Positions 2 through 61,294 of a DNA stretch of 64,000 bases are shown in pieces. Both the position numbers and the translations under genes were made by a program. Source of the DNA: an uncultured Bifidobacteriaceae bacterium. Lineage in GTDB: Bacteria > Acidobacteriota > Vicinamibacteria > Vicinamibacterales > UBA2999. The stretch covers positions 25,576 to 89,575 of the forward strand of contig CAZDLW010000001.1 of assembly GCA_964505975.1 (NCBI GenBank), read 5' to 3'. Numbering within the stretch: the first letter of the stretch is position 1; each line of letters opens with the position of its first letter. The notes under the pieces are model-generated. The model was not told the origin of the DNA. It ran no database searches and was given only the letters and a program-made list of their open reading frames with translations.

Positions 2-346
2 GCGCGGCACGACCGGGTCATTGGCCCCGATCCAGCGCCAGGACGCGGGTACTTCTTTCGATCCGATCACTTCCCGCTGGCGAAGATCGGGATTCCCGCA
101 CTGTCCATCAGCGATTCCATCGAGTTCATCGGCCCCACGGCTGCCGACGCCGCGAAGCGCCAGGACGCGTACAACGACACGGACTACCACCAGCCGAGCG
201 ATCGCATGCAGCCATGGTGGGATTTTGCCGGTGCGGTGCGGGATATGCGGCTGCTGGCCGAACTTGGATGGGACATCGCGAACGATCCGCAGATGCCGGC
301 GTATCATGCGGGCGAGCAGTTTGCGAGGGCCAGGGCAGAGCAGTAA
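2..346 (+). CDS. M28-family peptidase, C-terminal part (5' end outside window)
   Basis: The frame is open from the window edge to TAA 344-346. Hand translation ...GYFFRSDHFPLAKIGIPALSISDS...DYHQPSDRM... shows SDHxxF and GIP motifs typical of M28 aminopeptidase C-termini. It is absent from the ORF track because it has no start codon in the window. Confidence 0.6.
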   Translation, partial: ARHDRVIGPDPAPGRGYFFRSDHFPLAKIGIPALSISDSIEFIGPTAADAAKRQDAYNDTDYHQPSDRMQPWWDFAGAVRDMRLLAELGWDIANDPQMPAYHAGEQFARARAEQ

Positions 347-356
347 GACGCCTCGT

Positions 357-622
357 GCTTCTCCGGTTGTCTCAGCAAGACCCAGATTGTGTCCGCGTGG
401 TCGTGCCGACGTGCTCCTGCGCCTCGCTCCCGACGACATCGCGCGGTAAAACGCATCCTCCACCTGCTGTCAGCGACCCGAGCTGGGTCCCGCAACCCAG
501 CTCGGGTCTCACGTTCCGTATGCGTTTTGCGCGACTCCCATCGCGCGAGTCGTCGCCGCAGGGCACGTCAGCACGACCGCGCCACCAGCTGATTCGCGTT
601 GAGCTGAGACAACCGGAGAAGC
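357..622 (+). repeat. Family-1 long imperfect-palindrome element, copy A
   Basis: 357-376 is the exact reverse complement of 603-622 (20 bp). Inner helices are 399-414/563-578 (15/16) and apex 475-488/495-508 (14/14). The core 426-558 recurs at 13099-13296, 26757-26948 and 32637-32825. Confidence 0.85.
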
Positions 623-789
623 AGACGTCTGGCGAGGAGACCCGATGGTCAGTTCTTGCAATGCTCCCCGTGTTCCCCCGACCAGGGAACAACTCTCGCC
701 GCCACGCGCTGATGGTCCGCAGGCGCTCCGGCTCAGTTTGTCCTGGGTAGTGCAACCGGCCAGTTTCGCGTCTCCCCAGAATGTGTGGG

Positions 790-1003: not shown

Positions 1004-3985
1004 ATGCACAACCGGATCCTCGCGCTCGTGTGCGGCATGGTGCTCGCGGCTGTTCCTGCGTTCGCCCAGGTATCAGCGCAGGCCTCGATCACGGGAAACG
1101 TCCGCGACACGTCCGGTGCGGTGCTGCCAGGCGTGACAGTCGAGGCGAGCAGCCCGTCTCTCATCGAGCGGGTTCGGATCGTGACGACCGACAGCTCGGG
1201 ACAGTACCGCATCATCGACCTCCCGGGAGGCGTGTACGCCGTGACGTTCACCCTCCCCGGTTTCTCGACCATTCGGCGTGAAGGCGTCGAGCTCGCCGGT
1301 GCGTTTACCGCCACCGTGAACGTGGAGCTTCGTGTCGGGGCCCTGGAAGAGACAGTCACGGTGACCGGCGAGTCGCCGATCGTCGACGTCCAGAGCGCTC
1401 GACGGCAGCAGGTGCTGGACAGCTCCGTGGTCAATGCCATTCCGACCGGGCGCACGTACCACAGTCTTCTGACGGTGGTTCCCGGCATCGCCTCGACCTC
1501 GAACGATGTGGGGGGCATCTCGACCACATCGGTCGCGACGTTCACGATTCATGGCGGCCGCCCGAACGAAGGTCGGCTTCAACTGGATGGGATCGGCATC
1601 GGTGGGACGCTGAACGGCGGAGGCACGTCGATGTACAACGTCGACGTTGGGAGTGCCGCCGAGATCGTGTTCACGACCTCGGGCGGACTGGGCGAGGCGG
1701 AAGTCGGCGGACCCGTCATGAGCATCGTGCCCCGCACCGGCGGCAACACGCTCCGCGGCGCCATGTACGCCAATGGGTCGTCGGGTGCGCTGCAGGGCAG
1801 CAATCTCACCGAGGAGCTTCGCACGGCCGGACTGACCGTGCCGAGCTCGTTGCAGAAGCTATGGGACCTCAACGGCTCGTTCGGAGGGCCGATTGTGCGG
1901 GACCGGGCCTGGTACTACCTCACCTCGCGGTACCAGGGCAATCGGACCTACGTGACGAACATGTTCTACAACAGCAATGCCGGCGATCCATTGGCGTGGA
2001 CCTACGAACCCGACACGAAACGTGCAACCAACGATGGCACCTGGAAGAACGGCACCCTGCGGTTGACGCTCCAGCTCAACCGCAGGAACACACTCAACCT
2101 GATGTGGGACGAGCAGCGAATCTGGATCAATCACCTTGGTGGGGGGACGGCGACCATTTCACCCGAGGCTTCCGCAACCGGCGATGCCGCTCCGTTGAAA
2201 ACACGGCAGATTACCTGGCGTTCGCCAGCGTCGGGTCGTGTGCTGCTCGAGGGTGGCTATTCGATCAACGGCAGCCGCTGGGGCGGCCGCGAGCGCCGGC
2301 AGACCTACATGAACGGTCAGTTCATCGACGGCAACGCCACCCGCAGTCTGATCCGTGTGGTGGAGCAGGCCGGGCTCATCCCGAATCTCACGTACCGCTC
2401 GATGAACTGGAGCAGCAACGCGGCCTGGTCGAATCGATGGAGAGGCAGTGTGTCGTACGTGACCGGTGCGCACAGCCTCAAGGTGGGATACGAAGGGAAC
2501 TACCTCATCAACAACATCAAACCGTTCACGAATGACGAGCGGCTCACCTACCGTTTCAACAACGGTGTGCCGAATCAGTTGACGATGACGCTTCAGCCGT
2601 TCGAGACGCGAACGCGTACGGGTTCCCATTCCGCTTACATCCAAGACCAATCAACCTTCGGCCGCCTGACACTGCAGGGGGCCCTCCGGTTCGACTACGC
2701 CTACAGTCGATTCAAGGAGCAGCAGGTCGGACCGGATCGCTTCATTCCCGGGGGGATCGTGCTCCCGGCTCAGAACGGCGTGGAAGGCTTCAAAGATCTG
2801 AGTCCTCGTATCGGCGTTGCCTACGATCTGACTGGAGACGGCAGGACCTCGGTGAAGATGAACTGGGGTCGATATCTCGAGGCGGCCGCCAATCACGGCC
2901 GCTACACGGCCACCAATCCGCTCTCTCGAATCGTGACGACGACCACCAGGAGCTGGACCGACGCCAATGGCAATCGCGTGGCCGACTGCGACCTGCTGGC
3001 ACCAGGTACGCAGGACCTCCGCGCGTCTGGTGGTGATTTCTGCGGGGCCTGGGCGAATCTGAACTTCGGAAGCTCGGTGACGAGCACCCGGTACGATCCG
3101 GCCCTGCTCGAGGGCTGGGGCGTGCGGCCCAATGATGGGCAGATTGGCATCTCCGTCCAGCGTCAGATTCTCAGTCGGACATCGATCGAGGTCGGATACC
3201 ATCGCCGGTGGTTTGGCAACTTCGAAGTCACCGACAACCTGCTCGTTGGTCCGGCAGACTACGATGTGTATTTCCTGAATGTGCCCCTGGATCCTCGCCT
3301 GCCGGGCGGAGGAGGGTACGTCGTCCAGGACCTCACCAATATCAGGCCGGAGAGATTCGGCCAGAGCGACAACCTGGTGGTGAGCGCCAAGACGTTCGGC
3401 AACCAGATTCAGTACTGGCACGGGTTCGACGTGAATCTGAGCATGCGGATGGCGAATGGGCTCGTGTTCCAGGGAGGCACGAGCACGGGGCGTCAGGTGA
3501 CGGACAACTGCGAGGTCCAGCCGGATGATCCGAGCCGCCGGAACTGCCGGGTCACGCAGCCCGTACGCGTGCAGGCCAATGGCCTGGCGTCGTACACGAT
3601 TCCCAGAGTGGACGTGCAGGTCAGCGGTACCTTCCAGAGCCGTCCCGGCGGGTCGCTGGCGGCCAACTGGGTGGTCCCAACGGCAACGGTCGCGCAGACG
3701 CTTGGCCGCCCGCTCAGCGGAAACGCGGCCAACGTCACGATCAACGTGCTCGACCCGTGGCAGATGGTGCACGACCGGGTCAACCAGGTTGATTTCAAGG
3801 TGGCGAAGATCGTGCGAGTGGGCCGGACGAGGGCCACGCTTGGTGTCGACATCTTCAACGCCTTGAATTCGTCTGCCGTCCTCTCACGGCAGCAGGCCTA
3901 CAGCCCGACGAGCGCCGCATGGCTCACCCCGACGAGCGTCATCGACGCCCGCTTTGCCAAGTTCAGCGCGCAGTTCGACTTCTGA
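1004..3985 (+). CDS. TonB-dependent outer-membrane receptor with N-terminal carboxypeptidase-regulatory-like domain
   Basis: ORF 851..3985. ATG 1004 is preceded by GAAGGGGGA and gives signal peptide MHNRILALVCGMVLAAVPAFAQ. It has an ITGNVRDTSGAVLPGVTVEA CarboxypepD_reg-like start. The C-terminus ...FSAQFDF ends in an aromatic residue, as in beta-barrel OMPs. Confidence 0.85.
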   Translation: MHNRILALVCGMVLAAVPAFAQVSAQASITGNVRDTSGAVLPGVTVEASSPSLIERVRIVTTDSSGQYRIIDLPGGVYAVTFTLPGFSTIRREGVELAGAFTATVNVELRVGALEETVTVTGESPIVDVQSARRQQVLDSSVVNAIPTGRTYHSLLTVVPGIASTSNDVGGISTTSVATFTIHGGRPNEGRLQLDGIGIGGTLNGGGTSMYNVDVGSAAEIVFTTSGGLGEAEVGGPVMSIVPRTGGNTLRGAMYANGSSGALQGSNLTEELRTAGLTVPSSLQKLWDLNGSFGGPIVRDRAWYYLTSRYQGNRTYVTNMFYNSNAGDPLAWTYEPDTKRATNDGTWKNGTLRLTLQLNRRNTLNLMWDEQRIWINHLGGGTATISPEASATGDAAPLKTRQITWRSPASGRVLLEGGYSINGSRWGGRERRQTYMNGQFIDGNATRSLIRVVEQAGLIPNLTYRSMNWSSNAAWSNRWRGSVSYVTGAHSLKVGYEGNYLINNIKPFTNDERLTYRFNNGVPNQLTMTLQPFETRTRTGSHSAYIQDQSTFGRLTLQGALRFDYAYSRFKEQQVGPDRFIPGGIVLPAQNGVEGFKDLSPRIGVAYDLTGDGRTSVKMNWGRYLEAAANHGRYTATNPLSRIVTTTTRSWTDANGNRVADCDLLAPGTQDLRASGGDFCGAWANLNFGSSVTSTRYDPALLEGWGVRPNDGQIGISVQRQILSRTSIEVGYHRRWFGNFEVTDNLLVGPADYDVYFLNVPLDPRLPGGGGYVVQDLTNIRPERFGQSDNLVVSAKTFGNQIQYWHGFDVNLSMRMANGLVFQGGTSTGRQVTDNCEVQPDDPSRRNCRVTQPVRVQANGLASYTIPRVDVQVSGTFQSRPGGSLAANWVVPTATVAQTLGRPLSGNAANVTINVLDPWQMVHDRVNQVDFKVAKIVRVGRTRATLGVDIFNALNSSAVLSRQQAYSPTSAAWLTPTSVIDARFAKFSAQFDF

Positions 3986-4130: not shown

Positions 4131-7049
4131 ATGAAGACCATGCGGCGGATCCTGCTCTTCGTGCTCGTGGCGGCCATGCTGGACGCGCCGGCGCACGCCG
4201 ACGACATCGGGTCCGGGTCCCTGGTATTGACGGCGTGGACCGAGCACACGGGTCTGCCGCCAGGCGAGATTCTGGCCATGACGCAGGACGTGCAGGGATT
4301 CCTGTGGCTTGGCACGAGCGCCGGGCTGGTTCGCTTCGATGGCGCCAGGTTTGTCGCGTGGGGTTCGCGAGGTGAACCTCCGCTCCGGGCTCGGACGGTT
4401 CCTGCGCTGGTGGCGGCGCGGGACGGAAGTCTCTGGGTTGGCTTCGGAGCAGGAGGAATCAGCCAGATTCGCGGGACCGACGTGATCGACCATACGGGTC
4501 ACACCGGTGTCCCTCAAGGTGCCGTCGCCGCGTTGCTGCAGGATCGTCAGGGTGCCATCTGGGTCGGTGCGCGGCAGGGCTTTTCGAGATTCCGCGACGG
4601 TGGCTGGGAGGCATTCGATCACGCGGGCGAGGTATTCAGTCTCTTCGAGGATCGCGCCGGGCGCATCTGGATTGGGACCTCGGTCGGCGTGCTCGTGTAC
4701 GCAGACGATGCCCTGGAGCTCCGGGATCCAAATGCCCTCTACGTCCAGAACTTCGCCGAAGATGCCTCGGGCGTGATCTGGGTGACCGACGTCAAGGACA
4801 TCGTCAAGACGCTGGACGGCGGCTGGACGCCTGCTCACGCGCCCGACGTGCGTGCTCCGCAGAGCGGCTGGCGGCTCGTGCCCGATCGGCACGGAGCCAT
4901 CTGGGTGGCTGCTCTGGGTGGAGGGCTCCTTCGTCTGACCGGACACGATGGCGCGGTGATCGGGCGTGTGGCCTACGAAGACATGATCAACGGTGCCCCG
5001 AGGTCGCTCTTCTACGATCGCGACGACAACGTGTGGGTGGGCTTGAGGCCCGCCGGACTCCTCCGCCTGTCGCAGAGCTTCGTGAAGAGCGACGTCGCGC
5101 TCGAAGGGGTCACCAACGACGGCGTGCGTGCGATTGCGTCGAGCCCGGATGGCAGCGTGTGGGTCGGTACGGGTCACAGTCTGCACCGTTTCAAGGATCG
5201 AACGCGCGAGGTGTACGACATTGCCCAGACGCGTGCGCTCTACACCGACGCCCAGGGGGTCGCATGGGCGTTCACGTCTCATGGCGTTCGTTTCATCGAC
5301 GAGCGACGTCCTCCGGATGCCGGGCTCCCTTCGACAATCCGCTGGGATCGCATGATGTCGGTCGTGAGCGATCCCTCGGGGGCGCTCTGGCTCTGCAACG
5401 CCGATCAGGGCGTGATGATCTGGCGTCAGGGAGTCCTGTCACGTCTTCGCGACATTCCGGCGGCCTGGGCGGGCAGCTGCAGTTATGCCCATGTGGACCG
5501 CCGGGGGCGCGTCTGGCTGGGCCTCGGCGGCGCGCTCGTTGTCTACGACGGGGAGTCCTTCGAGACGTACCGCACCGAGCACGGGCTCGCGTCCGGATTG
5601 GTACTGGCGATGCTCGAAGACCGAACGGGGGCATTCTGGATCACGACGCGAAACGGTGTGAGTCGATACCGGAACGGTCGATTCACAACGCTCACCGAGG
5701 TCAACGGTCCCTTTGACGACCTCGCGGCGGCCCTCGTCGAAGATCAACAGGGCTTCATCTGGGTGAGTGTGGATGCCGGGTCCGCGATCGTTCGTCTTGA
5801 CCCTGCGGAGCTGGACAAGGTGGCAGCCGATCCCGCACGCCAGATCGAGTACCGGCTCTTCGATATGTCCGACGGGATACGGGGAGAACTTCGTTCGCTC
5901 ATCAGGGCTGCGGGCGTCAGGGATGCCCAGGGACAGTTGTGGTTTGCAACGGGATTTGGTGTCGTCATCCTGGATCCGTCGAAAATCCCGCCCAATCAGC
6001 GATCTGCGCCGCCGCAGATCGAGTCCGTCTCGCTGGACGGGAGGATGATCGGCCTGCCCGAAGCGGGCGTGACATTGCCCGGACGTGCCTCCACGCTCAC
6101 GATCGAATACACAGCCGTGAGCGTGAGCGCGGCCTCGAAGCTGCGTTTCCGGTACCGGCTGGAAGGCGTCGAGCCGACCTGGGTGCTGGCCGGGCCCCGT
6201 CGGACGGTGTCCTACGCCGATCTGGCACCGGGACGTTATCAGTTCAGGGTGAGCGCCACGAACGACGGGGTATGGTCGGAAGCCGCCACGTGGGCGTTCG
6301 TCGTCTCGCCACCGTTCTACCGGTCCAGCTGGTTCCTTGTGTTGTCCATGGGCGCACTCGGGTTGATGGTCGGAGCGGCATGGTGGCTGCGGCTGAGTGC
6401 TGTTCGAAGGCAGTATCACCTCGTCTTCGAAGAGCGGGCGCGTATGAGTCGCGAAATCCACGACACCTTGCTGCAGAGCCTTGCTGCCATCGGAGTGGAG
6501 CTGGAGAACATTGCCACCCAGTTGAATCCGGCAGAGGCGCGGGGTCGCGAATCGCTGCGGCGGCTACGGCGCCAGGTCGTACACTCTTTGCGGGAGGCGC
6601 GCGAGTCGATCCTCGGGCTGCGACAGAACTCGATGGAGAGCCGGAGCCTGGTGAGCGCGTTGCAGGCACTCGCCGACAACACGACGGCCGCGCAGCCTGC
6701 CCATGTCGATCTGACGGTCGATGGGCGGCCGCGTCGCTGCAATCCGGACGTGGAGCTGCAGTTGCTCCGGATCAGCCAGGAGGCCGTGACCAACGCCATC
6801 CGACACGGCGCGGCCACTCACATCAGTCTCGTCATCGACTTCCGTCCCGAGGCCGTGGCCCTCAGTGTCTCCGACAACGGACGCGGTTTCGTGGTTGGAG
6901 AGCACCTCACGGATACGGAGACGGGGACGCATCTCGGGCTGCTCGGTATGAGGGAACGGGCCGAGCGTGTCCGGGGCACGTTCGCGATCACCAGTACGGT
7001 CGGGAAGGGTGCCCTCGTAGAAGTGAGCGTGCCGACGCCGCCCGAGTAA
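4131..7049 (+). CDS. Sensor histidine kinase with periplasmic beta-propeller/Y_Y_Y-type repeats, HisKA_3 + HATPase
   Basis: ATG 4131 is in frame within ORF 3954..7049 and gives signal peptide MKTMRRILLFVLVAAML. It has repeated GxLWxGT propeller-like motifs, one TM segment, H-box SREIHDTLLQSL and ATPase motifs VSDNGRGF / GLLGMRERA. Confidence 0.85.
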   Translation: MKTMRRILLFVLVAAMLDAPAHADDIGSGSLVLTAWTEHTGLPPGEILAMTQDVQGFLWLGTSAGLVRFDGARFVAWGSRGEPPLRARTVPALVAARDGSLWVGFGAGGISQIRGTDVIDHTGHTGVPQGAVAALLQDRQGAIWVGARQGFSRFRDGGWEAFDHAGEVFSLFEDRAGRIWIGTSVGVLVYADDALELRDPNALYVQNFAEDASGVIWVTDVKDIVKTLDGGWTPAHAPDVRAPQSGWRLVPDRHGAIWVAALGGGLLRLTGHDGAVIGRVAYEDMINGAPRSLFYDRDDNVWVGLRPAGLLRLSQSFVKSDVALEGVTNDGVRAIASSPDGSVWVGTGHSLHRFKDRTREVYDIAQTRALYTDAQGVAWAFTSHGVRFIDERRPPDAGLPSTIRWDRMMSVVSDPSGALWLCNADQGVMIWRQGVLSRLRDIPAAWAGSCSYAHVDRRGRVWLGLGGALVVYDGESFETYRTEHGLASGLVLAMLEDRTGAFWITTRNGVSRYRNGRFTTLTEVNGPFDDLAAALVEDQQGFIWVSVDAGSAIVRLDPAELDKVAADPARQIEYRLFDMSDGIRGELRSLIRAAGVRDAQGQLWFATGFGVVILDPSKIPPNQRSAPPQIESVSLDGRMIGLPEAGVTLPGRASTLTIEYTAVSVSAASKLRFRYRLEGVEPTWVLAGPRRTVSYADLAPGRYQFRVSATNDGVWSEAATWAFVVSPPFYRSSWFLVLSMGALGLMVGAAWWLRLSAVRRQYHLVFEERARMSREIHDTLLQSLAAIGVELENIATQLNPAEARGRESLRRLRRQVVHSLREARESILGLRQNSMESRSLVSALQALADNTTAAQPAHVDLTVDGRPRRCNPDVELQLLRISQEAVTNAIRHGAATHISLVIDFRPEAVALSVSDNGRGFVVGEHLTDTETGTHLGLLGMRERAERVRGTFAITSTVGKGALVEVSVPTPPE

Positions 7050-7056
7050 GTCTCGT

Positions 7057-7686
7057 ATGTCAGATGCCCTGATTCGAATTCTCTGCGTCGACGACCATCG
7101 CCTGATGCGCGAGGGGATTGTGCGCAGCGTCGGGCTGCAGCCAGACATGGCCGTGATTGCGCAGGCCAGCAACGGCGAGGAAGCCGTGGAACAGTTCCGG
7201 CGGCACTCACCCGACGTGACGCTCATGGACCTGCAGCTGCCGCGGCTCAGTGGACTGGAGGCCATCCGCATGATCCGCGCGGAACAGCCCCAGGCGCGCA
7301 TCGTCGTCTTGACGATGTATCACGGAGATGAGGACATCTATCGGGCAATCCAGAGCGGCGCGTCCGGCTACCTCCTCAAGGACACCGTGCCCGATGACCT
7401 CGCCGACGTGATCCGCGAGGTCCACCAGGGGCGACGAGTGCTCCCGCCGGCAGTCGCTGCGGCGTTCGAGTCGAGGGCGAGCCAGCCCGGGCTGACACTG
7501 CGGGAGATTCAGGTTCTCGAGCTTCTGGCCTGCGGAAAACGTAATAAGGAGATTGCTGCCGAGCTTGGCATCAGCATCGACACGACGAGCTCGCACATTC
7601 GGAGCATCTTTTCGAAGTTCAAAGTCCACGATCGAACTGCTGCGCTGGCAGAAGGGCTCCGGCGTGGGATTCTTCACATCCCGTGA
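7057..7686 (+). CDS. NarL/LuxR-family response regulator
   Basis: Receiver motifs are ILCVDDH and TLMDLQLP. The C-terminal LuxR HTH is LTLREIQVLELLACGKRNKEIAAELGIS. It starts 8 nt after the kinase stop. Confidence 0.9.
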   Translation: MSDALIRILCVDDHRLMREGIVRSVGLQPDMAVIAQASNGEEAVEQFRRHSPDVTLMDLQLPRLSGLEAIRMIRAEQPQARIVVLTMYHGDEDIYRAIQSGASGYLLKDTVPDDLADVIREVHQGRRVLPPAVAAAFESRASQPGLTLREIQVLELLACGKRNKEIAAELGISIDTTSSHIRSIFSKFKVHDRTAALAEGLRRGILHIP

Positions 7687-13079: not shown

Positions 13080-13098
13080 GACTGTTCGGTTTCCTTAA

Positions 13099-13296
13099 TC
13101 CCGGAGCTCAGTGGGGTTGCGACGGAGCGGCGACCTCCGACTCGCGCGACACCAGTCGGGCAAAACGCATCTGGAGCGTGAGGACCGAGCTGGGTTGCGG
13201 GACCCAGCTCTGGTCGCTGGTCGCCGGTGAAGGATGCGTTTTACCGCGCGGAGTCGTCGGGAGCCCGCCCCGTTGCAACTCCACTGAGCTCCGGGA
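13099..13296 (-). repeat. Family-1 element, copy B (inverted orientation)
   Basis: Terminal arms CCGGAGCTCAGTGG (13101-13114) and CCACTGAGCTCCGG (13281-13294). The reverse complement aligns along its full length with copy C. Confidence 0.85.
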
Positions 13297-13450
13297 CCTA
13301 ACCCCCCGGACTCGTCCTGGACGCGAGCACACGTCGGAGCAGGCCGACTGGTGAGGCGCGTAACACGCCTCGGTGCAGCGAGTCTTCCGAGGCGGGTCTG
13401 CTGAGGCAGACCGAGGCGCGCCAGGGTCGACGCAGAATGCAGGATTCAGA

Positions 13451-17122: not shown

Positions 17123-18055
17123 TCACGTGTTTCGCGGGCTCTCCAGGGCAGCGCGGTCCCAGTCTGCCAGCGTCGCCGCGGCGTCATACGTCGTCTGCAG
17201 GAAGTCCAGCAGTGCGTCATCCGGCGACGCCGCCTGCCGGACGGCGTCGTACGGGAGTACGAACTCGCGGAGGTCCTGGCTGTAGAACGCCTGGTCGGGC
17301 CGGACGGGGGCGCTCGCGAATCCGGTGGGCTCGGGATACGCGTAGGCGTAGAACGCCGGAGACGGAATGGGGCCGCCGCCAGGCCAGAATCCGCAGCTGC
17401 TGACCTCGTGCGAGTACGCGTCTCGCGTGATCCGGTCCGGCAGATGTGGAATGCCTCCCGGATGTTCCGGAGCGCGCCGACCGGAGAATCGCGTAACCGC
17501 CAGATCAGGAGCGCCCCAGAAATAATGCACGGGGCTGCACTTTCCAACGAACCTGCCGCGAAACTGTTTGAAGACGCGATCCGCCTGCACCAGGACGCGC
17601 CAGAACCGGTTTGCGAACACGGAATCGTAGGTCCGATGTATCTCGTCTTCGTCGAACAGGATGGGACTTGCCACCTCGTTGGGTGTTCTCGAGATCGTCA
17701 CGGGCAGGTCCAGTTCGATCATCTGGTTCATCAAGCGGGTGTAGAACGTGGCCACGGACTGTGGCTCGAGGGCGAATCCGCCGGTGCTCCCGTCGCTGCA
17801 GGCCACGGTGAGCCGATGATCGACGAAGTCGAACCCGATCTCGAATACGCGCGGCCCCTGGGCCATCGGAGATGTCGTCAGCCCCCTGGCGGTCACGTAC
17901 AGCGTCACGTGCCAGGTGTGATTCACCCAGGGACTGTGCACGAGGCGGATCTTCCCCACGATCTGGGTCCACAAGTGCAGCGTGGCGCAGGTCTCGCTCC
18001 ACGCCTCCAACGGCAGAGCAGGCCACGCCTCATTCGAACGCGATCGATCGGACAT
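17123..18055 (-). CDS. DUF5996-like hypothetical protein
   Basis: 310-aa ORF. The N-terminus WPALPLEAWSETCATLHLWTQIVGKIRL matches my memory of the DUF5996 family. The opposite-strand ORFs are low-complexity artefacts. Confidence 0.6.
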   Translation of the reverse strand: MSDRSRSNEAWPALPLEAWSETCATLHLWTQIVGKIRLVHSPWVNHTWHVTLYVTARGLTTSPMAQGPRVFEIGFDFVDHRLTVACSDGSTGGFALEPQSVATFYTRLMNQMIELDLPVTISRTPNEVASPILFDEDEIHRTYDSVFANRFWRVLVQADRVFKQFRGRFVGKCSPVHYFWGAPDLAVTRFSGRRAPEHPGGIPHLPDRITRDAYSHEVSSCGFWPGGGPIPSPAFYAYAYPEPTGFASAPVRPDQAFYSQDLREFVLPYDAVRQAASPDDALLDFLQTTYDAAATLADWDRAALESPRNT

Positions 18056-18292
18056 GATGTCTCCATCAGGGTAGCCGCATTTTCGCGCCTTACGGGAAAT
18101 AATTCCCAGCGCGCCTGGACGTCGAGTGCGTGATGGCCTCGTGATGCCGGAAATCTGAGAGTACAGGCGCTGTCAACGACACTGTTCGGCACGCGACGGG
18201 GGCATCGCGTTTGAATTGCCACTGAAACCCGCCGGGTACGAGTCGAGAGGTCGGGATGCCAGCCGCGCCAGGTCGCAGAAAGGGACGGTGCT

Positions 18293-20916: not shown

Positions 20917-21051
20917 ACCAGCCAAGGGGCTCTGCCCCGTGATATCTCCGCAGAGCCCCTCGGCTGGTTGCCAGTATCTCTTTGCCGCTAGGACCGCTAT
21001 GGGGACCGACAAACGAGTACAAAATTCGCGTTCCGGGCCGCATAGCGGTCC
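20916..21051 (+). repeat. Family-2 conserved intergenic element, copy A (possible cis-regulatory leader)
   Basis: Hairpin 20916-20934/20951-20969 (18/19), shared block CGGCTGGTTGCCAGTATCTC (20961-20980), and an 11-bp helix GGACCGCTATG/CATAGCGGTCC (20991-21001/21041-21051) enclosing ACAAACGAGTACAAAATTCGCGTTCC. A second copy lies at 36002-36210. Confidence 0.7.
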
Positions 21052-21061
21052 AACGCTCGCG

Positions 21062-26737: not shown

Positions 26738-26993
26738 AGCGAGGCTCCGCCTACACCGGACCTCACTCGAGTTGCGACGGGGCGGGCTCCCGACGACGTC
26801 GCGCGGTAAAACGCATCCTCCACCCGCGGCCGGCGACCCGAGCTGGGTCCCGCAACCCAGCTCGGTCTTCACGTTCCGGATGCGTTTCGCCCCACTGCTG
26901 TCGCGCGAGTCGTAGGTCGCCGTCCCGTCGCAACTCAACTGAGCTCCGTGATTGGGACCCGCGGGCATGTCGGCGGCGGCTCCCTCTCGCTGG
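26738..26993 (+). repeat. Family-3 hairpin repeat interrupted by a Family-1 element (composite)
   Basis: The left half CAGCGAGGCTCCGCCT (26738-) and right half GGGACCCGCGGGCATGTCGGCGGCGGCTCCCTCTCGCTGG (-26993) match the two halves of the 24529-24592 repeat. They are separated by the Family-1 copy. Confidence 0.7.
26757..26948 (+). repeat. Family-1 element, copy C
   Basis: Arms CGGACCTCACTCGAGTTGCGACGG / CCGTCGCAACTCAACTGAGCTCCG. The core is nearly identical to copy A, and the apex GACCCGAGCTGGGT-cccgca-ACCCAGCTCGGTC is retained. Confidence 0.85.
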
Positions 26994-32565: not shown

Positions 32566-32636
32566 AGATTCCTCCCTGTCACGAACCAGCGGATTATACG
32601 CGGCCGTTCCCCGGGCGACGAGGAATCGCGAAGCCG

Positions 32637-32825
32637 GGTGCCGGCGGCCGGCATGCTGGGCTGGCTCCCGATGACCTCACGCGGAAAAACGCGCCCTCCG
32701 CTCGAGGGGCGACGACCCGCGCTGGTCCGTGACCAGCGCGGCTCTCACGCTGCGGGCGCGTTTTACCCGGTCCGGATCGCGCGAGTCGTAGGTCGCGGCG
32801 TCCAGCATGCCCGGCCGCCGGCACC
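32637..32825 (+). repeat. Family-1 element, copy D (divergent, compensatory variant)
   Basis: Outer helix 32638-32659 / 32802-32824 (~22 bp). The conserved blocks GGCTCCCGATGAC...CGCGGAAAAACGC and GCGTTTTACC...ATCGCGCGAGTCGTAGGTCGC are present. The apex is 32714-32727/32731-32744. Confidence 0.8.
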
Positions 32826-32892
32826 GGCGTCGCTGCACCAACACAAGTGAGCACCGTGGACAGTGCAGAGCGCGTCTCGAGGCGGAGCTTCC

Positions 32893-33975
32893 TCACGACG
32901 GTGCCCGGATGGTTTCGGCCGCGGGCGATTCCGGCCAGACCAGCTCTGGAGCAGCCGTATAGCGCGCGTGCGCGAGGCACGCCTGGAACAGGGCTGTCTG
33001 CGACGCGAGGAAGTGGAGCTTGAGCATCAGTCGTGCGAGCAGGTAGATCTGCCCTGTCGCCAGAGCGAACAAGAGCGACGGTCCGGCGCCGCCGGCACCG
33101 GGTGCACCAATGGCCCAGATCGCGATGACGACGAGAAACATTGCGCTGTTCAGTGCATAGAGTCCGGCCACCTGACCGGGGCGTCGCGCGACGAAGCGCA
33201 GCGCCGCTGCCAGCGCACCGATTATGCTGCGGCGGTCCTCTACGACCGTTCGAATCTTCGCGTAGTCGAACAGGACATTCACGGAGACGAGCACGACAGA
33301 GAAGATGGCGTAGAAGGCAAGCCGCCAGAGAAACGCGGTGCGCTCGACGCTGACGCTCCGCGTCACCGCGGCGAAGAGATCGTCGAACAACCAGGGATGG
33401 ACGTACGCAAACAGCCACCAGTACACGACGCCGGCTGCCAGAGCCAGTCGCAGGAAACGGACGACGTAGACGCCGCAGGCACCGAAAAACCCGTGTGCGC
33501 GCGTCGGTCGTTGCCGTGCGTACCGATCGAGGATCCCACCAACCAGAAACGTCCAACCGGCGAGATACAGCGCAACCACCGCGGCGACAGGGACAATCCG
33601 CGAGCGGCCGTCCATGACGCCGCTCATCGCGTCCAACGTGCTGGCAAAGCCGATGATCGTGGGCGAGAAAGTCGTTCCAATCCCGGTGGCCTGCGCGGTG
33701 AATTCCTGCCACCAGTCGTAGTTCACGGCATCGGCAGCTGCATGCGCCATGAGGCTCCCGCCAAGGTGCTCCTGCAGCAGGCTGCGCAGCGTCAACGCGA
33801 GCGGCAGCGCCAGGAGCAGCGTCATCGCCAGGACGCCCGCGATGATCGCCGGCGACGCCGCCACTCGTATCCAGCCGTCGCGCCACGCGGCATGGACGCC
33901 TCCAGATCGATGACCGATCCGTCGTGCTTCGTGATCGTGCCGCCAGCCGTGCGACCAGGAACGTCGAATCACCAC
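32893..33975 (-). CDS. Polytopic integral membrane protein, unknown function
   Basis: 360-aa ORF with ~8 hydrophobic segments. The overlapping + strand 1031-aa ORF is Arg-rich and is rejected. The start is uncertain. Confidence 0.5.
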   Translation of the reverse strand: MVIRRSWSHGWRHDHEARRIGHRSGGVHAAWRDGWIRVAASPAIIAGVLAMTLLLALPLALTLRSLLQEHLGGSLMAHAAADAVNYDWWQEFTAQATGIGTTFSPTIIGFASTLDAMSGVMDGRSRIVPVAAVVALYLAGWTFLVGGILDRYARQRPTRAHGFFGACGVYVVRFLRLALAAGVVYWWLFAYVHPWLFDDLFAAVTRSVSVERTAFLWRLAFYAIFSVVLVSVNVLFDYAKIRTVVEDRRSIIGALAAALRFVARRPGQVAGLYALNSAMFLVVIAIWAIGAPGAGGAGPSLLFALATGQIYLLARLMLKLHFLASQTALFQACLAHARYTAAPELVWPESPAAETIRAPS

Positions 33976-34023
33976 GAGGTCCCGGTTCCAACGGAGCGCG
34001 CAGCCACCAGCACCGTCATCCGC

Positions 34024-36024
34024 CTACAGGAAGAATCCGTACGTCAGCATCAACTCCTGCAGCCACATCATCCACGTGAGGCTCCACTTGAGGCTGGCCT
34101 CGCGGGCGCGAGGCTGGAGGGTCTGGCTGTTGTTCGTGTAGTTCACGTCGAGCAGCAGTACGCGCTCGGGATCGATCCGCACCGTCGATGCCGGCGTCGG
34201 TCGTTCGTACTCGTAGACGACGCGCCGATCCACGCCGTCCCAGCGCTCCCGCACCTCTGCGCCGTCGGCGAACGTCGTGACGACATCGACGGGGAAGACC
34301 GCGTCGCCGACGCGCTGCACGACCACGGTCGTGCGGTGATTCCCGTTGGCCATGCGCTCGGTTGCGAGCTCCTGCACGCCGTAGTCGAAGACACCCGATC
34401 CGCGATGCACCTGGTCGAAGAACCACGTCAGATCCTGTCCGCTCACTTCGTTGGCGATGTCGAAGAAGTCGTCCGGCTGGGGGTGTCTGAACTTCCAGCG
34501 GTCGAAGTACGTGGCCAGGATCTGCTGCATGACCGGCCAGCCGACATGACGCTCGAGTGTGTGCAGCCAGAGCGCCGTCTTGCTGTACGTGATTGCGGTG
34601 GCGGTCGTCGGCCAGTACTGCCAGGTCGGCGTTGCAGGCGTGTCGGCGCTCGGTGCTTCGCGATACCGCGCCAGGCCGTTGCCGTCCGTGGCACGTTGCA
34701 GGCGGATGTCGTGAAGGACCCAGGGAACGAACCCACCGAAATACCGCAGCGCCAGGCGGTTCGGGAGTGCGATCTCGTCGATCAGTCGCGCGCCCGCGTA
34801 CGCCGTCAGCCCCTCGTCCATCCACGCGTGTTCCACCTCGTTGGTGCCGACGATCCCGTGCCAGAACTGGTGTCCGACTTCGTGAATCGTGACGCTCTCC
34901 GGTACGCTGACGCGTCGCGGCGCCAGCCAGCGGGAACCGGCGGTCAAGAGCGTCGGATACTCCATCCCCTGGCTCCCGCTCTGATACGCCGGATCGACGA
35001 TGGTCAGGTGCCCATATGGATAGGGACCGAACCACTCGCCGAAGTGCTGCAGCGTGGCCGCCGCTGCGGAGAAGTGGCGGTCTGCCTGTCCACGGTGCTC
35101 GGGCTGGAGCATGAGACGCATCTCCACGCGCGGCAACGCCGGATGCTCGAACGGTCGGCGCAGGTCGATGAACCGCGGGCTCGCCGTCCACGCGAAGTCG
35201 GCGATGTCCTCCCCGCGATACCGATGGGTTACGGTGCCGTCGGCGTTGTCGGTGCGCCCCGTTTCGCGGCCGGACGCGGCAACGACAAAGGGGCGAGGGA
35301 GAGTGATGCGAACGTCGAACTCCGCGTAGTCGGCGTAGAACTCCGTGTGCGAGTGGAACTGGTGGGCCTTCCACCCTCCGTCCTCCAGCACCCCCATTCT
35401 CGGGAACCAATGTGCGATGAAGTAGTAGTCGCCAATCCATCCCACCCGGATGCGTGTGAACGGCGCGGGAATCCGTGCGGCCCACTCGATATCGAGCTCG
35501 ACCGTGTCGTGCGGTCTCACCACGAAGGGCAGCGGGACCGCCAGCACCGTCCGGTCCGCGTCGTTGCCATCGTCGGGTGCGATGTAGCGCGCACTCGGTG
35601 TCAGGTTCAACGGCGGTCCGTCCGGCGTACGCAGGCGAATCGCCGAGAGGTCGATGGCGCCGACGTGTTCCGGACGCGATGGCAACGTGCCTCCGGCGCG
35701 CCGGTGTCCGCGGAACCATGTCGAGTCGAGATCGCGCCAGGCGTTCCAGTACAGCTGCAACCGCACCTCATCCGTCTCGTAGGCGCTGATGTTCCTCCAG
35801 CGGATCGTCTGTCGTCCGTCCAGCCTCCGTTGCCCGTGGTCGAGACGGACGTCGATCTCGTAGCGGGCGTTGCGCGGCGACAGCCCCTCCGGCCCCGGAT
35901 GGTCGAAGCTCTGTACGGACGGCGGACGCCCCTGCTCGCCTCGTACACTGGTCCCTGACACGATGGCGAGCGCGCAGACGCACGCAATGGCTACGCACCA
36001 GCCAGCCACGGGGCCCCTCCCCAT
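34024..36024 (-). CDS. Secreted M1-family zinc aminopeptidase
   Basis: ATG 36024 within ORF 34024..36084 gives signal peptide MGRGPVAGWCVAIACVCALAIV. It has the HEVGHQFWHG...WMDEGL gluzincin motif. Confidence 0.8.
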   Translation of the reverse strand: MGRGPVAGWCVAIACVCALAIVSGTSVRGEQGRPPSVQSFDHPGPEGLSPRNARYEIDVRLDHGQRRLDGRQTIRWRNISAYETDEVRLQLYWNAWRDLDSTWFRGHRRAGGTLPSRPEHVGAIDLSAIRLRTPDGPPLNLTPSARYIAPDDGNDADRTVLAVPLPFVVRPHDTVELDIEWAARIPAPFTRIRVGWIGDYYFIAHWFPRMGVLEDGGWKAHQFHSHTEFYADYAEFDVRITLPRPFVVAASGRETGRTDNADGTVTHRYRGEDIADFAWTASPRFIDLRRPFEHPALPRVEMRLMLQPEHRGQADRHFSAAAATLQHFGEWFGPYPYGHLTIVDPAYQSGSQGMEYPTLLTAGSRWLAPRRVSVPESVTIHEVGHQFWHGIVGTNEVEHAWMDEGLTAYAGARLIDEIALPNRLALRYFGGFVPWVLHDIRLQRATDGNGLARYREAPSADTPATPTWQYWPTTATAITYSKTALWLHTLERHVGWPVMQQILATYFDRWKFRHPQPDDFFDIANEVSGQDLTWFFDQVHRGSGVFDYGVQELATERMANGNHRTTVVVQRVGDAVFPVDVVTTFADGAEVRERWDGVDRRVVYEYERPTPASTVRIDPERVLLLDVNYTNNSQTLQPRAREASLKWSLTWMMWLQELMLTYGFFL

Positions 36025-36210
36025 GCTATCCCCGCCGATCCCCGCGGCTGGTTGCCAGTATCTCCTCCCCCCACCGCGACGCACGCGTGCGCCGTGGGGA
36101 CCCCGGCTTGCCGCGCTTCGCGCGGCTAGGACCGGCTGGGACCGCTATGCCGCCGGAAGTCACGACACACAACGAGAACGAAATTCGCGTTCCTGGCCGC
36201 ATAGCGGTCC
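36002..36210 (+). repeat. Family-2 conserved intergenic element, copy B
   Basis: Same order of blocks as copy A: hairpin 36002-36013/36040-36051, CGGCTGGTTGCCAGTATCTC (36045-36064), GCTAGGACCG, and helix 36139-36149/36200-36210 around ACAACGAGAACGAAATTCGCGTTCC. It carries extra inserted hairpins (e.g. GCCGCGC-ttc-GCGCGGC). Confidence 0.7.
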
Positions 36211-36357
36211 GAAGCTGCACACTGTACTCCGCGGAGATGGTACACCCTCAGCACAGGCATGGCCCGCTCGTGGATGCCGAGGCCTCTGTCCCTCGTCGTC
36301 GAGACCGTGATGCCCCCATATAATGCGCGAGCGTGATCGGCCGGCCGGAGTGAAACG

Positions 36358-44663: not shown

Positions 44664-44755
44664 AGGTCAGCCCAGCCGGATTCGAGGTTCAACAGTCGAG
44701 CCGAGTGCCCACATCATCGGGTCATCTTACGGGAACTCGACGGGAAAGCAGCCAC

Positions 44756-44810
44756 GGGGCTCCGCCTCACGTCCTTCGACCGTTGCTCAGGGTCGCGGGT
44801 CGAGGGGGTG
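44756..44810 (+). repeat. Solitary unit related to the 48856-49030 tandem repeat
   Basis: GGGGCTCCGCCTCAC-GTCCTTCGACCGTTGCTCAGGGTCGCGGGTCGAGGG shares the GTCCTTCGAC..GCTC.GG...GGTCGA core. Confidence 0.5.
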
Positions 44811-48825: not shown

Positions 48826-48855
48826 GTCAGCACCAGCCCGGCGTTGCCGCCCCTC

Positions 48856-49030
48856 GTCCTTCGACTGTCGCTCGGGACAACCCCGAGTGGGGTCGAGCTG
48901 TCCTTCGACTAACGCTCAGGACTACCCTGATCGGAGTTGAGCGGTGTCCTTCGACTCGCACTCCGGATAACCTCAGTCGGGGTCGACGCGTGTCCTTCGA
49001 CTCTCGTCGAGGACACCCGCGGGCGACGTC
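48856..49030. repeat. Four-unit degenerate tandem repeat (~44-46 bp units)
   Basis: GTCCTTCGACT begins at 48856, 48900, 48946 and 48992. The units share GTCCTTCGACTnnCGCTCnGGAC....GGGGTCGA. Confidence 0.8.
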
Positions 49031-49406
49031 CAGGAGTGGCATCCCTGCCGGTCCCCGTGGCCGGTTTGCCGTAGCTCGTGGCCGCGCATCGCGGGAGGGA
49101 GGAGGAGGGGGCGGCATCGATGAACGGGGCAGTGTAGCGTGTCTCATTCGTACGGGCAAAACACTGGCGCACCCGAGCCCATGCAGAGTGCGGACCGGAC
49201 AGGTCACCTGTGCATCCCTCTTCGATGAGCTTTGCCCCGACCCGTTGACCATGCGGCGGTGCTGCCCCGCCAGCGAGCGTGACGACCGGACCTGTGCGAG
49301 ACGGACGGAACGTTCCGACGAGTGTCGCCACCGACTGGTCCGTTGCAGGCCGCGTGCCTTGCCCCTCAGCTGGACGCGCGCCGGCACCAACGCTGCTGTC
49401 CCGCTA

Positions 49407-53243: not shown

Positions 53244-54377
53244 ATGGCCAAGGCAAAGAATCGAGCCCCGGCACGTTCTTCCAGTCGCTCACCCCAGGGC
53301 AGGCCCGCGGGTGGCTCCGGGAGGAGCGGGCGAGTTCTCCGGAATGCGTCCAAGGAACGGACGGGCTCCGCGAGCGTGAATCCACGCACCGGCGTGCGCG
53401 CGTCGGTCCCACGGCGGACCTCCGCGGCCACGGATCCCGGGCGTGTGAATCGGGGGCGCGGCACTCGCGAGGTGCGCCCGGACGGCGGTGGCACTCTCGC
53501 CCGAGAGGCCACAGCACGAGCGAGCCGCGCGCGCGAATCGTTCGTCGCGGCGAACGAGACGAGCCCGGCTGTGTCACCGGCACCGCATGGGCAGAAAGCC
53601 GAGGCCGGCGACCATGGACGCTACGTCTACTGCATCATCCGCTCGACCAGCCCGCTGAGGTTCGGCCCAATCGGCATCGATGGACAGTCGCCGGAGGTGT
53701 ACACCGTCACCTACAAGGACATGGCCGCGGTCGTCTCCGACGTGCCCATCGCTCCACTGGACAGCACCAGGGAGCACGTGCTCGCGCACGAACGCGTGAA
53801 CGAGACCGTGATGCGCGGTCATACGGTCATCCCGATGTCCTTCGGCACGATCTTCAAGACGTCGGACGACATCGTCGAGCTCCTCCGGTCTGCCTACGAG
53901 GCGTTTGCGGACGTGCTCGACAAGATGCGCGACAAGCTGGAGTACGGCCTCAAAGTCCTGTGGGATCGCGACGAGATCGTGCGCGCCATCGAGCAGGAGG
54001 ACGAGGACATCCATCGGCTCAAGCGCGAGATCGCCTCGCAGAAGGGCTCGACGTATTTCGCGCGCATGCAGTACGGGCGGCTCATCGACACCGCGTTGCA
54101 GCATCGGTCGGAGCGGTACGTGGCCGAGTTCCTTCACCGACTGCGGAGCGTGTCCGTGGCTTCGCGGGTGAATCGCGCCATTGGCGACAAGATGATCATG
54201 AACGCCGCGTTTCTCGTGCAGCGCGATCAGGAGCGGGCGTTCGATCGGCGAATCAAGGAAATCGCGTCGGCGTTCGAGAGCCTGACGTTCAGGTATACGG
54301 GACCGTGGCCACCGTACAACTTCGTCAATATTCGGCTCAAGCTCGAGCGGGCGGGCCCGCCCGGAAAGACGGAGTGA
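53244..54377 (+). CDS. gvpF: GvpL/GvpF-family gas vesicle protein with Arg/Ser/Gly-rich N-terminal extension
   Basis: The core from YVYCIIRS (about nt 53619) to YTGPWPPYNFVNI matches GvpL_GvpF family motifs (AAVVSDV, VIPMSFGTIF). The first ~125 codons are low-complexity. An alternative GTG start is at 53571. Confidence 0.75.
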   Translation: MAKAKNRAPARSSSRSPQGRPAGGSGRSGRVLRNASKERTGSASVNPRTGVRASVPRRTSAATDPGRVNRGRGTREVRPDGGGTLAREATARASRARESFVAANETSPAVSPAPHGQKAEAGDHGRYVYCIIRSTSPLRFGPIGIDGQSPEVYTVTYKDMAAVVSDVPIAPLDSTREHVLAHERVNETVMRGHTVIPMSFGTIFKTSDDIVELLRSAYEAFADVLDKMRDKLEYGLKVLWDRDEIVRAIEQEDEDIHRLKREIASQKGSTYFARMQYGRLIDTALQHRSERYVAEFLHRLRSVSVASRVNRAIGDKMIMNAAFLVQRDQERAFDRRIKEIASAFESLTFRYTGPWPPYNFVNIRLKLERAGPPGKTE

Positions 54378-56028: not shown

Positions 56029-59000
56029 TCAGTCCCCGTCGAGCGTATCGTCCCGGTCCACCTCCGATGCCGCGCTATCGGGGTCCACATCGCGACTCGT
56101 GGCCCCATCGGATCCCGCGGCATCGTCTCGTCGGACCCGTTCTGGGGTCTCCTCCGGGTGTTCAGAGCTCCGATTGGCAGCCGTGGGTTCGACTCCCGGC
56201 GTGTCCTCGGGCCCTGCCATGTCGTCACCCGCGCGCGTCGGTGTCCGATTCGCCCCTGTCTGTTTCGTGTCCATTGACGTGCCTCCATGGCCTGGCGGCA
56301 ACGGGTCGACACTCGTGCCCGTGGCCGCTTCGATCTCCTGTACTCCCCGGTAACCAGTAGGGCGTATCCGTTCGGTCCGAAGCTGCAGGCCCATCGCGGT
56401 TCTTGCGAATCCGGCTTCGACGAAGACCGGCGCCGCGGGATGTTGCGTGGCCGGATGCGCGTTGATCGCGCTGATGAGCAGGCCCCGGCGCCCTTCCTCA
56501 CGCGTTGACGCGAACCGGATGAGACAGCGCGCGAGCGCGTCGATCATGCGGGACCAGAGCGGGTTGTCGCGGGACACGAAGAGCAGCAGGTCGCGCTCGT
56601 TGCGCCGGAGATAGCCGGCTGCGAATCCGCTCACCAGGATCGCCACCGCACCCGCGATCCGTGTCGGCCCGCGCCCGGGCGTCTCCGGGCGGGCCCCCGC
56701 CGACTCACCTCGATCGTCGGTGCGGCCCCCCGACTCGGACAGGAGTTCGGGCCACGGCACAATCGAACCATAGGGGTTTGCCGGATCCGTGGCTGCAAGG
56801 GCCACGGCCGTCAGCGTGTCTGGCGCATCGCGCAGCGACCGGATCGACTCCAGGGCCCCACCCATTGCGAATTGAGCAGCGCCCAGGCCCGCGACGAAAT
56901 AGCCCCGCTGGATGCGTCCAGCGTGTTCCATGGCTGTGAGCACAGGGTAGATGGCCGCGAAGCCGCCGGGGATGGCCTCGGCCAACGCCGCTTCCCGGGT
57001 CACGATGCCATATCGTCTCAGAAGCTGTCGCGCCACTGCCGCGCCCCATTCCGTGACACTTCGCCGATGGGTGATTGCGGAGTCGAGCAGGGACCAGCGT
57101 CCCGTGGCTGTCGGCGGAACGGCCGGGCGGGCGTGCTGCGATATCCCCCGGCGGCGGCGATCGTGAGCCCGGTCGACATCCACATAGGCGCGCAGGGGGT
57201 GCAGGGTGTCGTTGGTGACCACCCCCTGCCAGACGAGATCCCATAGGGCATCGACGGTGTCCTGGGGGAACCCGCCCCCGGTTCCGTGATGAATGGGGGC
57301 GAAGAACGACGCCCCGTGGCGCTGCAAGTAGGCGCGGACGTGGGCCGCCCGGTCTGTCATGACGGCCTCCGACTCTGGCGGGGAACCCGCCGGCCTGCCC
57401 ATCGTGACTGGCGCCCTCAGTTGATCCAGGTGTTCGGCCCGGTAGAGCACAATCCGGCCATCCTTGTCGCCGAGGCGCTCGACGCCGGCCCACACCACGA
57501 CTCCAGTGCCCATCAGCCCATCGAGCATCTCGCGGCGATAGCCGTGCACGCGCGCGGGGAGGATGTCGTCCTCGAGCATCGAGGCCGGGAGTGGTGCCCC
57601 CTGGAGCTGATCGATGGCGTCGAGCAGCGCATCGATGCCCTGTCTCGCAGCGCCGATCGCGTGCCAGCTCACCAGGAACCGGCCGAGTGCGTCCGCGTCT
57701 ACGGGCTCGATCTCCTCGCGCAATCGAGCCAGCGAGCGTCGTCGCAGCGTGTGGAGCACTCCTGGATCGACCCATTCCCGTTCGACGCCACGCGGGCGGA
57801 ACTCACCTTCCACCAGGCGGCCTTGTTCGACGAGCCGCCGAAGAAGGGCAATCGTGGCAGCACGCTCGAACCCGTATCGAGCCGCGAGATCCCCGGCGGC
57901 GAACGGCCCATGCGATCGGGCATAGCGGAGCACGATGTCTGCCGTCGCCTCGGGAACCGGGGCGAGAAACGCCTTCGGAAGTCCCGCTGGAAGGCGCACT
58001 GCGATCGCGTCGCGGTACCTGGCCGCGTCCTCCGCGGCGAGGTACCGCTCTCCGCCGCCAATGGTCAGCCGCAGGATGCGCTGTGCGCGCTCGAGATCCG
58101 CCGCCGCGGCGCGCGTGTCGGGCAAGGCGCTGCGCGCCTCGAGCTCGGCCGGCGACAGGTCCCCAATGCGCATTAGCAGATCGTGGAGGCCGTCGGCGGA
58201 TCGAACGCGGTAGCGCTCGTCGAGGTGTTGCAGCTGACGTTCGAGTGTGGCGAGGGCCTCGGGATTCAGCAGTTCCCGCAACTCGGCATCGCCAATGAGC
58301 TCACGAAGCTGGGCCTGATCGACCGACAGCGCCTGCGCACGCCGCTCGGCCAGCGGGGCATCGCCGTCATAGATGTAATTGGCGACGTAGCTGAAGAGCA
58401 GTGATGCGGCGAACGGTGACGGCCGTTGCGCGTCGGTAGCCGCAACGTGCACGGCGCCGTCCACCACGCGTCGCAGGATGTCGACGAGTCCTCGCATGTC
58501 GAAGTGATCGTGCAGGATCTCGCGATATGTTTCGAGCAGCACCGGAAACGAACCAAAGCGAGACGCCGCGGCGAGCAGGTCGGTTGCCCGCTTGCGCTGC
58601 TGCCACAGCGGGGTGCGGAGGCCGATGCGGCGGCGTGGCAGAAGCAAGGCGCGCGCCGCGGCTTCACGGAACCGCGCCGCGAAGAGTGCCGTGGCATGGA
58701 GCTGCCGCAGGACAAGCGCTTCGACGTTGTCCGGGTCGAGAAGCAGCCAGCCGGGATCCGGTGCCGTGTCCGTGCTTGGCACGCGCACGACGAACCCATC
58801 GTCGCCCCACAGGGCTTCCACGTCCAGGCCCGTGCGCTCCCGGATCTGTGCCGTGACCGCCATGGCCCATGGTGCGTGTACGCGGCTACCCAAGGGGGAG
58901 AGCAGACAGACGCGCCAGTCGCCGAGCTCGTCCCGGCATCGCTCGATCGCAACGGTGCGATCGTCGGGCACGGTGCCCGCGGCTGCCTGTTCGTCGAGGT

Positions 59001-61194: not shown

Positions 61195-61257
61195 TAACAG
61201 AAGTCTAACGAGGCTCCGCCTCGGACCGCCTTGCAAAGAACCATGCTGCCTTTGTCG

Positions 61258-61285: not shown

Positions 61286-61294
61286 CGAAGGAAC

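Follow-up and report, generated by a model that had tools for sequence, protein, structure and literature searches.

The described systems closest to the palindromic repeat family reported here are the TA-duplicating MITEs, among them the Correia (CREE) elements of Neisseria and those derived from IS630/Tc1-mariner. IS630/Tc1-mariner-like and Correia-type MITEs insert at TA dinucleotides. The likeness covers their size (100-300 bp), their non-coding nature, their intergenic location in either orientation and their folding as one long hairpin, together with terminal inverted repeats (copy A and a sister family, see below), TA ends (copy B and the sister family) and presence/absence polymorphism between related genomes. 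In contrast, the present family is more conserved at its centre than at its termini, which differ between subfamilies; its duplication of TA is putative.

The ERIC/IRU elements of enterobacteria are reportedly imperfect palindromes exceeding 100 bp whose central inverted repeat is conserved; they are said to be intergenic, probably transcribed, present in either orientation and to occur as length variants. By description only, this palindromic, centre-conserved, intergenic and either-orientation layout is that of the present element, which, however, is about twice as long, bulges asymmetrically and has a terminal motif at its flank, and comes from another phylum with no sequence relationship. 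The REP/RAYT systems have a counterpart in the TIRYT "TIRtron" repeats of an acidobacterial clade of tyrosine transposases, associated with families of long inverted repeats (Di Nocera et al. 2013, PMC3733652). REPINs (Bertels & Rainey 2011, PMC3116915) and TIRtrons are, as here, hairpin-forming intergenic repeats with compensatory changes. Unlike them, the present family possesses neither a REP doublet nor a GTAG/CGTC tag, its ends are variable, and no RAYT or TIRYT gene lies in the sequence examined. Finally, the TwoAYGGAY RNAs (Rfam RF01731) combine a structured core and an extended basal stem with large copy-number variation, and a mobile element-like spread has been proposed for them (bioRxiv 10.64898/2026.09.22.753630). 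The likeness resides in the conserved structured core with its extended basal stem, the copy-number variation and the mobile element-like spread, whereas the present family has no Rfam match, no conserved loop motif and no wobble bias, and is known from DNA alone.

The family was encountered in a 64-kb stretch of DNA, analysed as a whole and hereafter called the window. It is probably a family of non-autonomous, MITE-type mobile DNA elements, imperfect palindromes of 200-290 bp residing in the intergenic spacers of an uncultured, Vicinamibacterales-like soil acidobacterium. The original prediction had proposed either a structured non-coding RNA or DNA element or a mobile, MITE/REP-like palindrome. 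The mobile palindrome is supported by the insertion polymorphism, the unrelated contexts, the two orientations, the terminal repeats of copy A, the TA flanks of copy B and the sister family; the structured RNA found no specific support, and membership of the REP/REPIN class is unsupported.

Hairpin architecture and copies in the window

Copy A (Table 1) folds as one rod. The perfect closing helix, predicted to span 20 bp, is one base longer, with two arms of 21 nt that are 100% complementary, in contrast with the imperfect inner stem. Further inwards, 399-414 (GGTCGTGCCGACGTGC) and 563-578 are complementary at all but one of their 16 positions, as read directly from the sequence, and the apex arms (475-488 and 495-508) pair throughout, both as originally described. 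RNA folding of this rod yields -166.9 kcal/mol for the + strand and -175.2 kcal/mol for the - strand (z = -12.6 and -10.9, respectively), and DNA parameters give z = -12.3 for either strand; no shuffled sequence equalled these values in any case. The stop codon noted ahead of the element is the TAA at 344-346, which ends the C-terminus of an M28 peptidase (frame 2-346), and copy A therefore begins inside or just after this stop codon, directly behind its TA (344-345).

Table 1. Coordinates of the palindromic elements of the window and of the parts of copy A.
Feature	Position	Strand	Description
Copy A, full palindromic element	346..631	+	286 bp; weaker pairing extends the palindrome to these limits
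Copy A, left terminal inverted repeat	356..376	+	TGCTTCTCCGGTTGTCTCAGC; motif also precedes the core of L001, L004 and L014 on the 5' side
Copy A, right terminal inverted repeat	603..623	-	perfect reverse complement of 356-376
Copy A, conserved directional core	424..560	+	mean column identity 85% over nine copies; between M28 peptidase and CarboxypepD_reg outer-membrane protein genes
Copy A, apex hairpin	475..508	+	14/14 bp stem, 6-nt loop; stem covaries among copies
Copy A, asymmetric right-arm bulge	529..540	+	12 nt, GCGCGACTCCCA; sequence differs from copy to copy
Copy B	13098..13298 (core 13127-13265)	-	201 bp; between + strand DUF1552 and ankyrin/cytochrome c genes
Copy C	26754..26952 (core 26784-26922)	+	199 bp; between - strand DUF4149 and isocitrate dehydrogenase genes
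Copy D	32612..32838 (core 32662-32798)	+	~227 bp palindrome; different subfamily

The core of ~137 nt recurs three more times in the window, as had been noticed, and repeat search, nhmmer and a covariance model agree on a total of exactly four copies; with the covariance model, the other window copies score 127-139 bits and no further copy appears in the 64 kb. Core identity amounts to 81-89% among copies A, B and C, and to 69-70% between these and copy D. With 69-89% identity overall, the window copies thus do not result from a recent burst. The elements have a direction, defined by their asymmetry as claimed: forward scores of 127-157 bits stand against 20-35 bits on the reverse strand. Two features create this direction, the 12-nt bulge of the right arm and a set of non-complementary positions conserved in every copy (GCTCCCGmCGAC opposite GTCGkAGGTCGC). 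The bulge occupies the right arm in every copy and lies in copy A between GCGTTTT and TCGCGCGAG; to the eye, it resembles GCGCGAGTCG next to it, as if duplicated in tandem and then decayed. The spacing from CGCGGWAAAACGC to TCGCGCGAGTCG is 86 nt, and 84 nt in copy D.

Copy B is reversed relative to copies A, C and D, which corrects the earlier description. Copy A is sense to its flanking genes, whereas B, C and D are antisense. All four copies reside in spacers between co-directional genes, as originally stated; this applies to copy D as well, because the + strand ORF at 32863-35958 is spurious and the real genes are on the - strand. The latter, at 32893-33975 and 34024-36084, are defined by synteny with the related contig L127 (see below) and by a match to M1 peptidases; copy D is flanked by two hypothetical genes, next to the M1 peptidase. 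The spurious ORF encodes 1031 aa with no Pfam match. Pfam searches of ~40 ORFs of the window, a few of them without any match, returned no transposase, reverse transcriptase, RAYT or Y1 domain, in agreement with the absence of such genes in the original prediction. The right half of the window, devoid of copies of this family, carries a gas-vesicle gene of the GvpL/GvpF type (53244-54377) and encodes an Lhr-type helicase of 1835 aa (56029-61536).

Dispersal, empty sites and termini

Five further copies were retrieved, three (L001, L002, L004) from one Vicinamibacterales MAG (JBOGIR01) and two (L014, L128) from metagenome contigs; with the window copies A-D, they constitute the nine-copy set used throughout. 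Among 185,579 species genomes scanned with a pattern, only MAG JBOGIR01 gave true matches (n=3). Three other genome matches, from two MAGs of Thiobacillus and one of a gammaproteobacterium, arose by chance within an orthologous coding gene and were discarded. The metagenome scan, whose pattern was loose and had to begin with plain bases, returned 120 loci, the real ones being L014 and four loci of a sister family. Two translated frames of the core, searched against 5.8 billion proteins, gave one match each, both to spurious ORFs, one of which led to L128, the most divergent copy; with a single match per search, the family thus appears rare in public data. Plasmid and phage collections, as well as pattern scans of viral contigs, contain no match, and the family was not found in the literature searched. 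It is rare and confined to one lineage, and with only nine known copies the statistics are thin. The nine copies adjoin unrelated genes with no common neighbour, none of the neighbour genes at the loci bearing copies encodes a mobility protein, and the copies of MAG JBOGIR01 also sit in divergent promoter regions. Short tandem repeats directly follow the element in L002 (CTGCCTA x4, 3395-3430) and in L128 (GATTCGAC/GAGGATTCGAC-type units, 400-510).

The closest relative available is L127 (the contig carrying P0001), with an isocitrate dehydrogenase (IDH) 94% identical in protein, ~85% nucleotide identity, and synteny with 17.8-36 kb of the window; the covariance model detects no copy in its 21 kb. 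At the site of copy C, the DUF4149-IDH spacer measures 304 bp in the window and 127 bp in L127; in five further relatives, the spacer is 15, 18 or 71 bp long or is replaced by a GAF gene. Where the DNA itself was read, in L127 and in L129-L134, the orthologous spacer holds no element, and no copy occurs elsewhere in that DNA. Gene calls only indicate a 15-bp spacer at this site in the P0006 contig and, in the P0036 contig, an unusually long spacer of 332 bp before IDH that could hold an element. At the site of copy D, the spacer is 327 bp in the window and 46 bp in L127. Two sequences common to both, CTCACTTG and TATAATCCGCT, bracket ~245 extra window bases (~32601-32845), located between CAAGTG and a conserved TATAAT. 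The orthologous spacers of syntenic relatives being empty or short, the copies are insertions, and the sign of mobility that the original prediction had named, insertion polymorphism, is observed for copies C and D with respect to L127. Relative to close relatives, the copies are insertions in unrelated contexts and in both orientations, non-coding and directional. Copy D abuts the TATAAT box (32591-32600, conserved with L127), which lies upstream of the downstream gene, and any -35 region once present has given way to the insertion.

Other families of palindromic repeats are also inserted in this genome, and one of them has a clean empty site in L127. This second family is made of two hairpins (CCAGCCAnGGGGC...GGCTGG, then GGACCGCTATG...CATAGCGGTCC) and is found at 20917-21058 and 36001-36220, with a fragment at 60313-60358. 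At the first of these positions, 142 bp in the window correspond to a 13-bp spacer (TCCGGAGCCAGCG) in L127, which possesses one half-copy of the family at 18033-18095. In addition, four tandem units of 44-46 nt (GTCCTTCGACT...), each a small hairpin with no Rfam match, occupy 48834-49036; this REP-cluster-like array adjoins a YfiR/HmsC-like gene, and a single related unit is located 4 kb upstream (44749-44791).

The termini of the family are not conserved across subfamilies. The terminal inverted repeats match at 21 of 21 bp in copy A, and are imperfect and 17-29 bp long in copies B and C, which have ATCCCGGAGCTCAGTGG-type terminal repeats of their own in common; by eye, these resemble the repeats of copy A in their CCGG...CTCAG part. 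TA is found on both flanks of copy B (13096-13097 and 13299-13300). On the left, TA also adjoins copies A, C (26752-26753) and D; on the right, copy C is followed by TG and copy A by GG. Comparison of the C and D sites with L127 provides no clean filled-versus-empty junction and no alignable empty site with a single TA.

A motif of 19-25 nt, GTGCTTnTCCGGTTGTTTCAG, is present in the window at 355-379 and 600-624, in L001 at 7442-7466, in L004 at 464-488, and in L014 at 948-972. In these last three loci, it precedes the core on the 5' side and on the strand of the element, at a variable distance of 67-104 nt, the sequences between motif and hairpin being unrelated; none of the three has a right-hand partner, and only copy A possesses the inverted one. 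Scanning with a weight matrix detected the motif nowhere else in the window or in L127, L129, L130, L132 and L133, and 733 kb of unrelated loci contain no match of comparable score. Its identification as a promoter was rejected, with no fit to the sigma-70, sigma-54 or ECF consensus by eye and an empty promoter scan.

The four sister-family loci (L059, L110, L114 and L123) score 34-36 bits with the covariance model. Their hairpin of ~170 nt displays the same asymmetric layout, its left arm carrying CGAC..GCGCGGGAAAACGC and its right arm GCGTTTT, a bulge of 8 nt and TCGCGCGAGTCG, and its apex 11-mer (GGTCCGTGACC) is identical to that of copy D. These elements of ~245 bp share 91-96% identity with one another, have unrelated flanks, come from at least three samples, and are bounded by inverted repeats of 14-17 bp (ACnACTTTGTCACTTTC; bounding sequence ACTTTGTCACTTTC) that align with those of copy A at the same position. 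Three of the four have TA on both sides. The loci were picked by a pattern holding two core motifs, the link being therefore partly ascertainment, and nhmmer attributes them only ~10 bits; given this selection and the weak sequence similarity, homology of the sister family with the window element is probable rather than proven. Homologous or not, the sister loci show this hairpin layout inside a textbook TA-flanked MITE. Directly beside the sister element of L110, at 5310-5470, lies a MITE-like palindrome in which perfect terminal repeats of ~22 bp (TAGAACTCATCTCATAAATGCG...) enclose ~120 bp.

Stem conservation and alternative readings

RNAalifold applied to the nine copies gives one long hairpin, in which 16 pairs are kept through two-sided changes. 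In the core, pairing is found in 97.3% of the cells, a proportion that falls to 30-42% once the 3' partners are displaced by one to three columns, and double changes affect nine pairs (17 cells); none of 500 shuffles reaches the observed values. From one subfamily to the next (A; B and C; D; the MAG type; L128), the outer stems have wholly different sequences and yet are always paired. Pairing is therefore important over the full extent of the hairpin, which compensatory substitutions preserve from end to end. Conservation peaks at the centre and is lowest at the ends, paired columns are 93% conserved versus 70% for unpaired ones, and mismatches as well as one G·T pair are invariant in all nine copies. 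G·U intermediates occur in three cells only, versus 17 fully compensated ones, and arm-against-arm alignments contain 32 G·T-type mismatches on the + strand versus 40 on the - strand, a balanced distribution. This substitution pattern looks DNA-like rather than RNA-like. The covariation invoked as a mark of RNA does exist, but it is almost entirely full Watson-Crick, as is also seen in palindromic DNA repeats.

At gathering thresholds, Rfam 15 has no match in the whole window, so Acido-1 and Acido-Lenti-1, which had been put forward as candidates, did not match, if present in that release. In E-value mode, only plant and animal miRNA-precursor models emerge, far below thresholds, as for generic long hairpins. 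Neither a sigma-70-like promoter nor an intrinsic terminator or U-tract is located around copy A. Coding potential was rejected, GC3 being flat (0.6-0.8) in the six frames with no frame common to the copies, as was the idea of a guide RNA: comparison of the left variable segment and the bulge with 260-nt flanks gave a few matches of 9-10 nt, inconsistent in position and strand.

Several of these features would suit a multi-copy structured non-coding RNA, in which the directional 137-nt core is functional, the closing stem needs only to pair, and copies have multiplied in a mobile element-like manner: the core far better conserved than outer stems that change between subfamilies and stay paired, its double compensatory changes, the strong directionality, and the conserved mismatches and G·T pair. 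Such an RNA is nevertheless unlikely, considering the lack of Rfam match and of promoter- or terminator-like sites, the mixed orientation relative to host transcription, and the absence of the element from close relatives at the same loci. The higher conservation of paired columns, the scarcity of G·U intermediates, the wobble-type mismatches without strand bias and the equally good folding of both strands also argue against it. Alternatively, the 137-nt core and a 19-nt 5' motif could form a functional structured module (RNA or single-stranded DNA hairpin), bound by a trans-acting protein and riding on, or constituting, a new mobile unit in Vicinamibacterales. This would account for the greater conservation of the centre than of the ends, the invariance of certain mismatches, and the fixed side and strand of the motif at a variable distance; we regard it as quite unlikely. 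The identities of 6S RNA and retron were rejected on spacing, copy number, the absence of reverse transcriptase and the lack of Rfam match. An integron attC site was also rejected: inspection reveals no GTTRRRY ends, no integrase was found in the window, and the copies lie 5.9-13.7 kb apart in both orientations with housekeeping operons in between.

A REP/REPIN-like element, moved as single-stranded DNA by a RAYT/TIRYT-type HUH (Y1) transposase that would be encoded once, outside the sequence examined, and would recognise the hairpin, is plausible in this phylum because Acidobacteria encode a distinct RAYT-like "TIRYT" clade whose flanking inverted repeats form repeat families (PMC3733652). 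The long intergenic hairpin with its compensatory changes is compatible with it, and the conserved mismatches near the stem base may resemble recognition features of HUH substrates. However, the alignments reveal neither the GTAG/CGTC tag nor the pair of 20-40 nt REP units (criteria from PMC3733652). The element is, moreover, several times longer than REPINs, it is conserved at its centre and not at two ends, and no Y1 transposase domain is found in the window or the loci examined. HUH transposition makes no target-site duplications. The terminal repeats of copy B and the sister family, with their TA flanks, speak instead for a mechanism of the DDE type, and the single-stranded route is improbable to a marked degree. 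Least of all would we expect a recruited host cis-element, acting between co-directional genes as a barrier to transcription or RNase in both directions, or as a nucleoid-protein site, like the enterobacterial BIME/REP. The same operon junctions work in relatives with spacers of 15-127 bp and no element, the MAG copies in divergent promoter regions do not conform to it, U-tract terminators are lacking, and the terminal repeats and dispersal would be left unexplained. In its favour are the location of the four window copies (4/4) between co-directional genes, with copy A directly after a stop codon, and the GC-rich hairpin, stable enough that it would block 3' exonucleases in either orientation, a block established for REP.

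Proposed mobility and significance

As a MITE-type element, the family would depend on a transposase encoded elsewhere in the genome, probably of the DDE type, which would act in trans, recognise the terminal inverted repeats (TGCTTCTCCGGTTGTCTCAGC in copy A, of the ATCCCGGAGCTCAGTGG type in B and C) and duplicate TA. The element would have inserted at TA dinucleotides, in the manner of the IS630/Tc1-mariner-like and Correia-type MITEs. Its conserved internal hairpin may be needed for mobilisation or may be inherited from a parent element, and effects on neighbour genes, for instance the displacement of a promoter or a barrier at RNA 3' ends, would be a by-product. Neither the window nor the loci examined yielded a transposase with matching ends. 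The MITE model is least well matched by the conserved centre with variable ends, by the invariant mismatches and by the one-sided motif, which leave a small probability for a functional core. MITEs usually display the reverse pattern, their ends being conserved more than their centre.

The family was previously unlisted, but it is of an ordinary, well-known kind and does not constitute a new RNA class; a tempting candidate for a "new structured RNA" is thereby removed. Its centre-conserved, ends-variable pattern with a detached terminal motif is mildly unusual. Vicinamibacterales are an abundant and poorly studied soil group, for which a lineage-restricted family of palindromic repeats is now documented. 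Such elements inflate the intergenic spacers inside operons, can displace promoters, as illustrated by copy D abutting a conserved TATAAT, mislead gene callers by being read as small ORFs, and can serve as strain markers.
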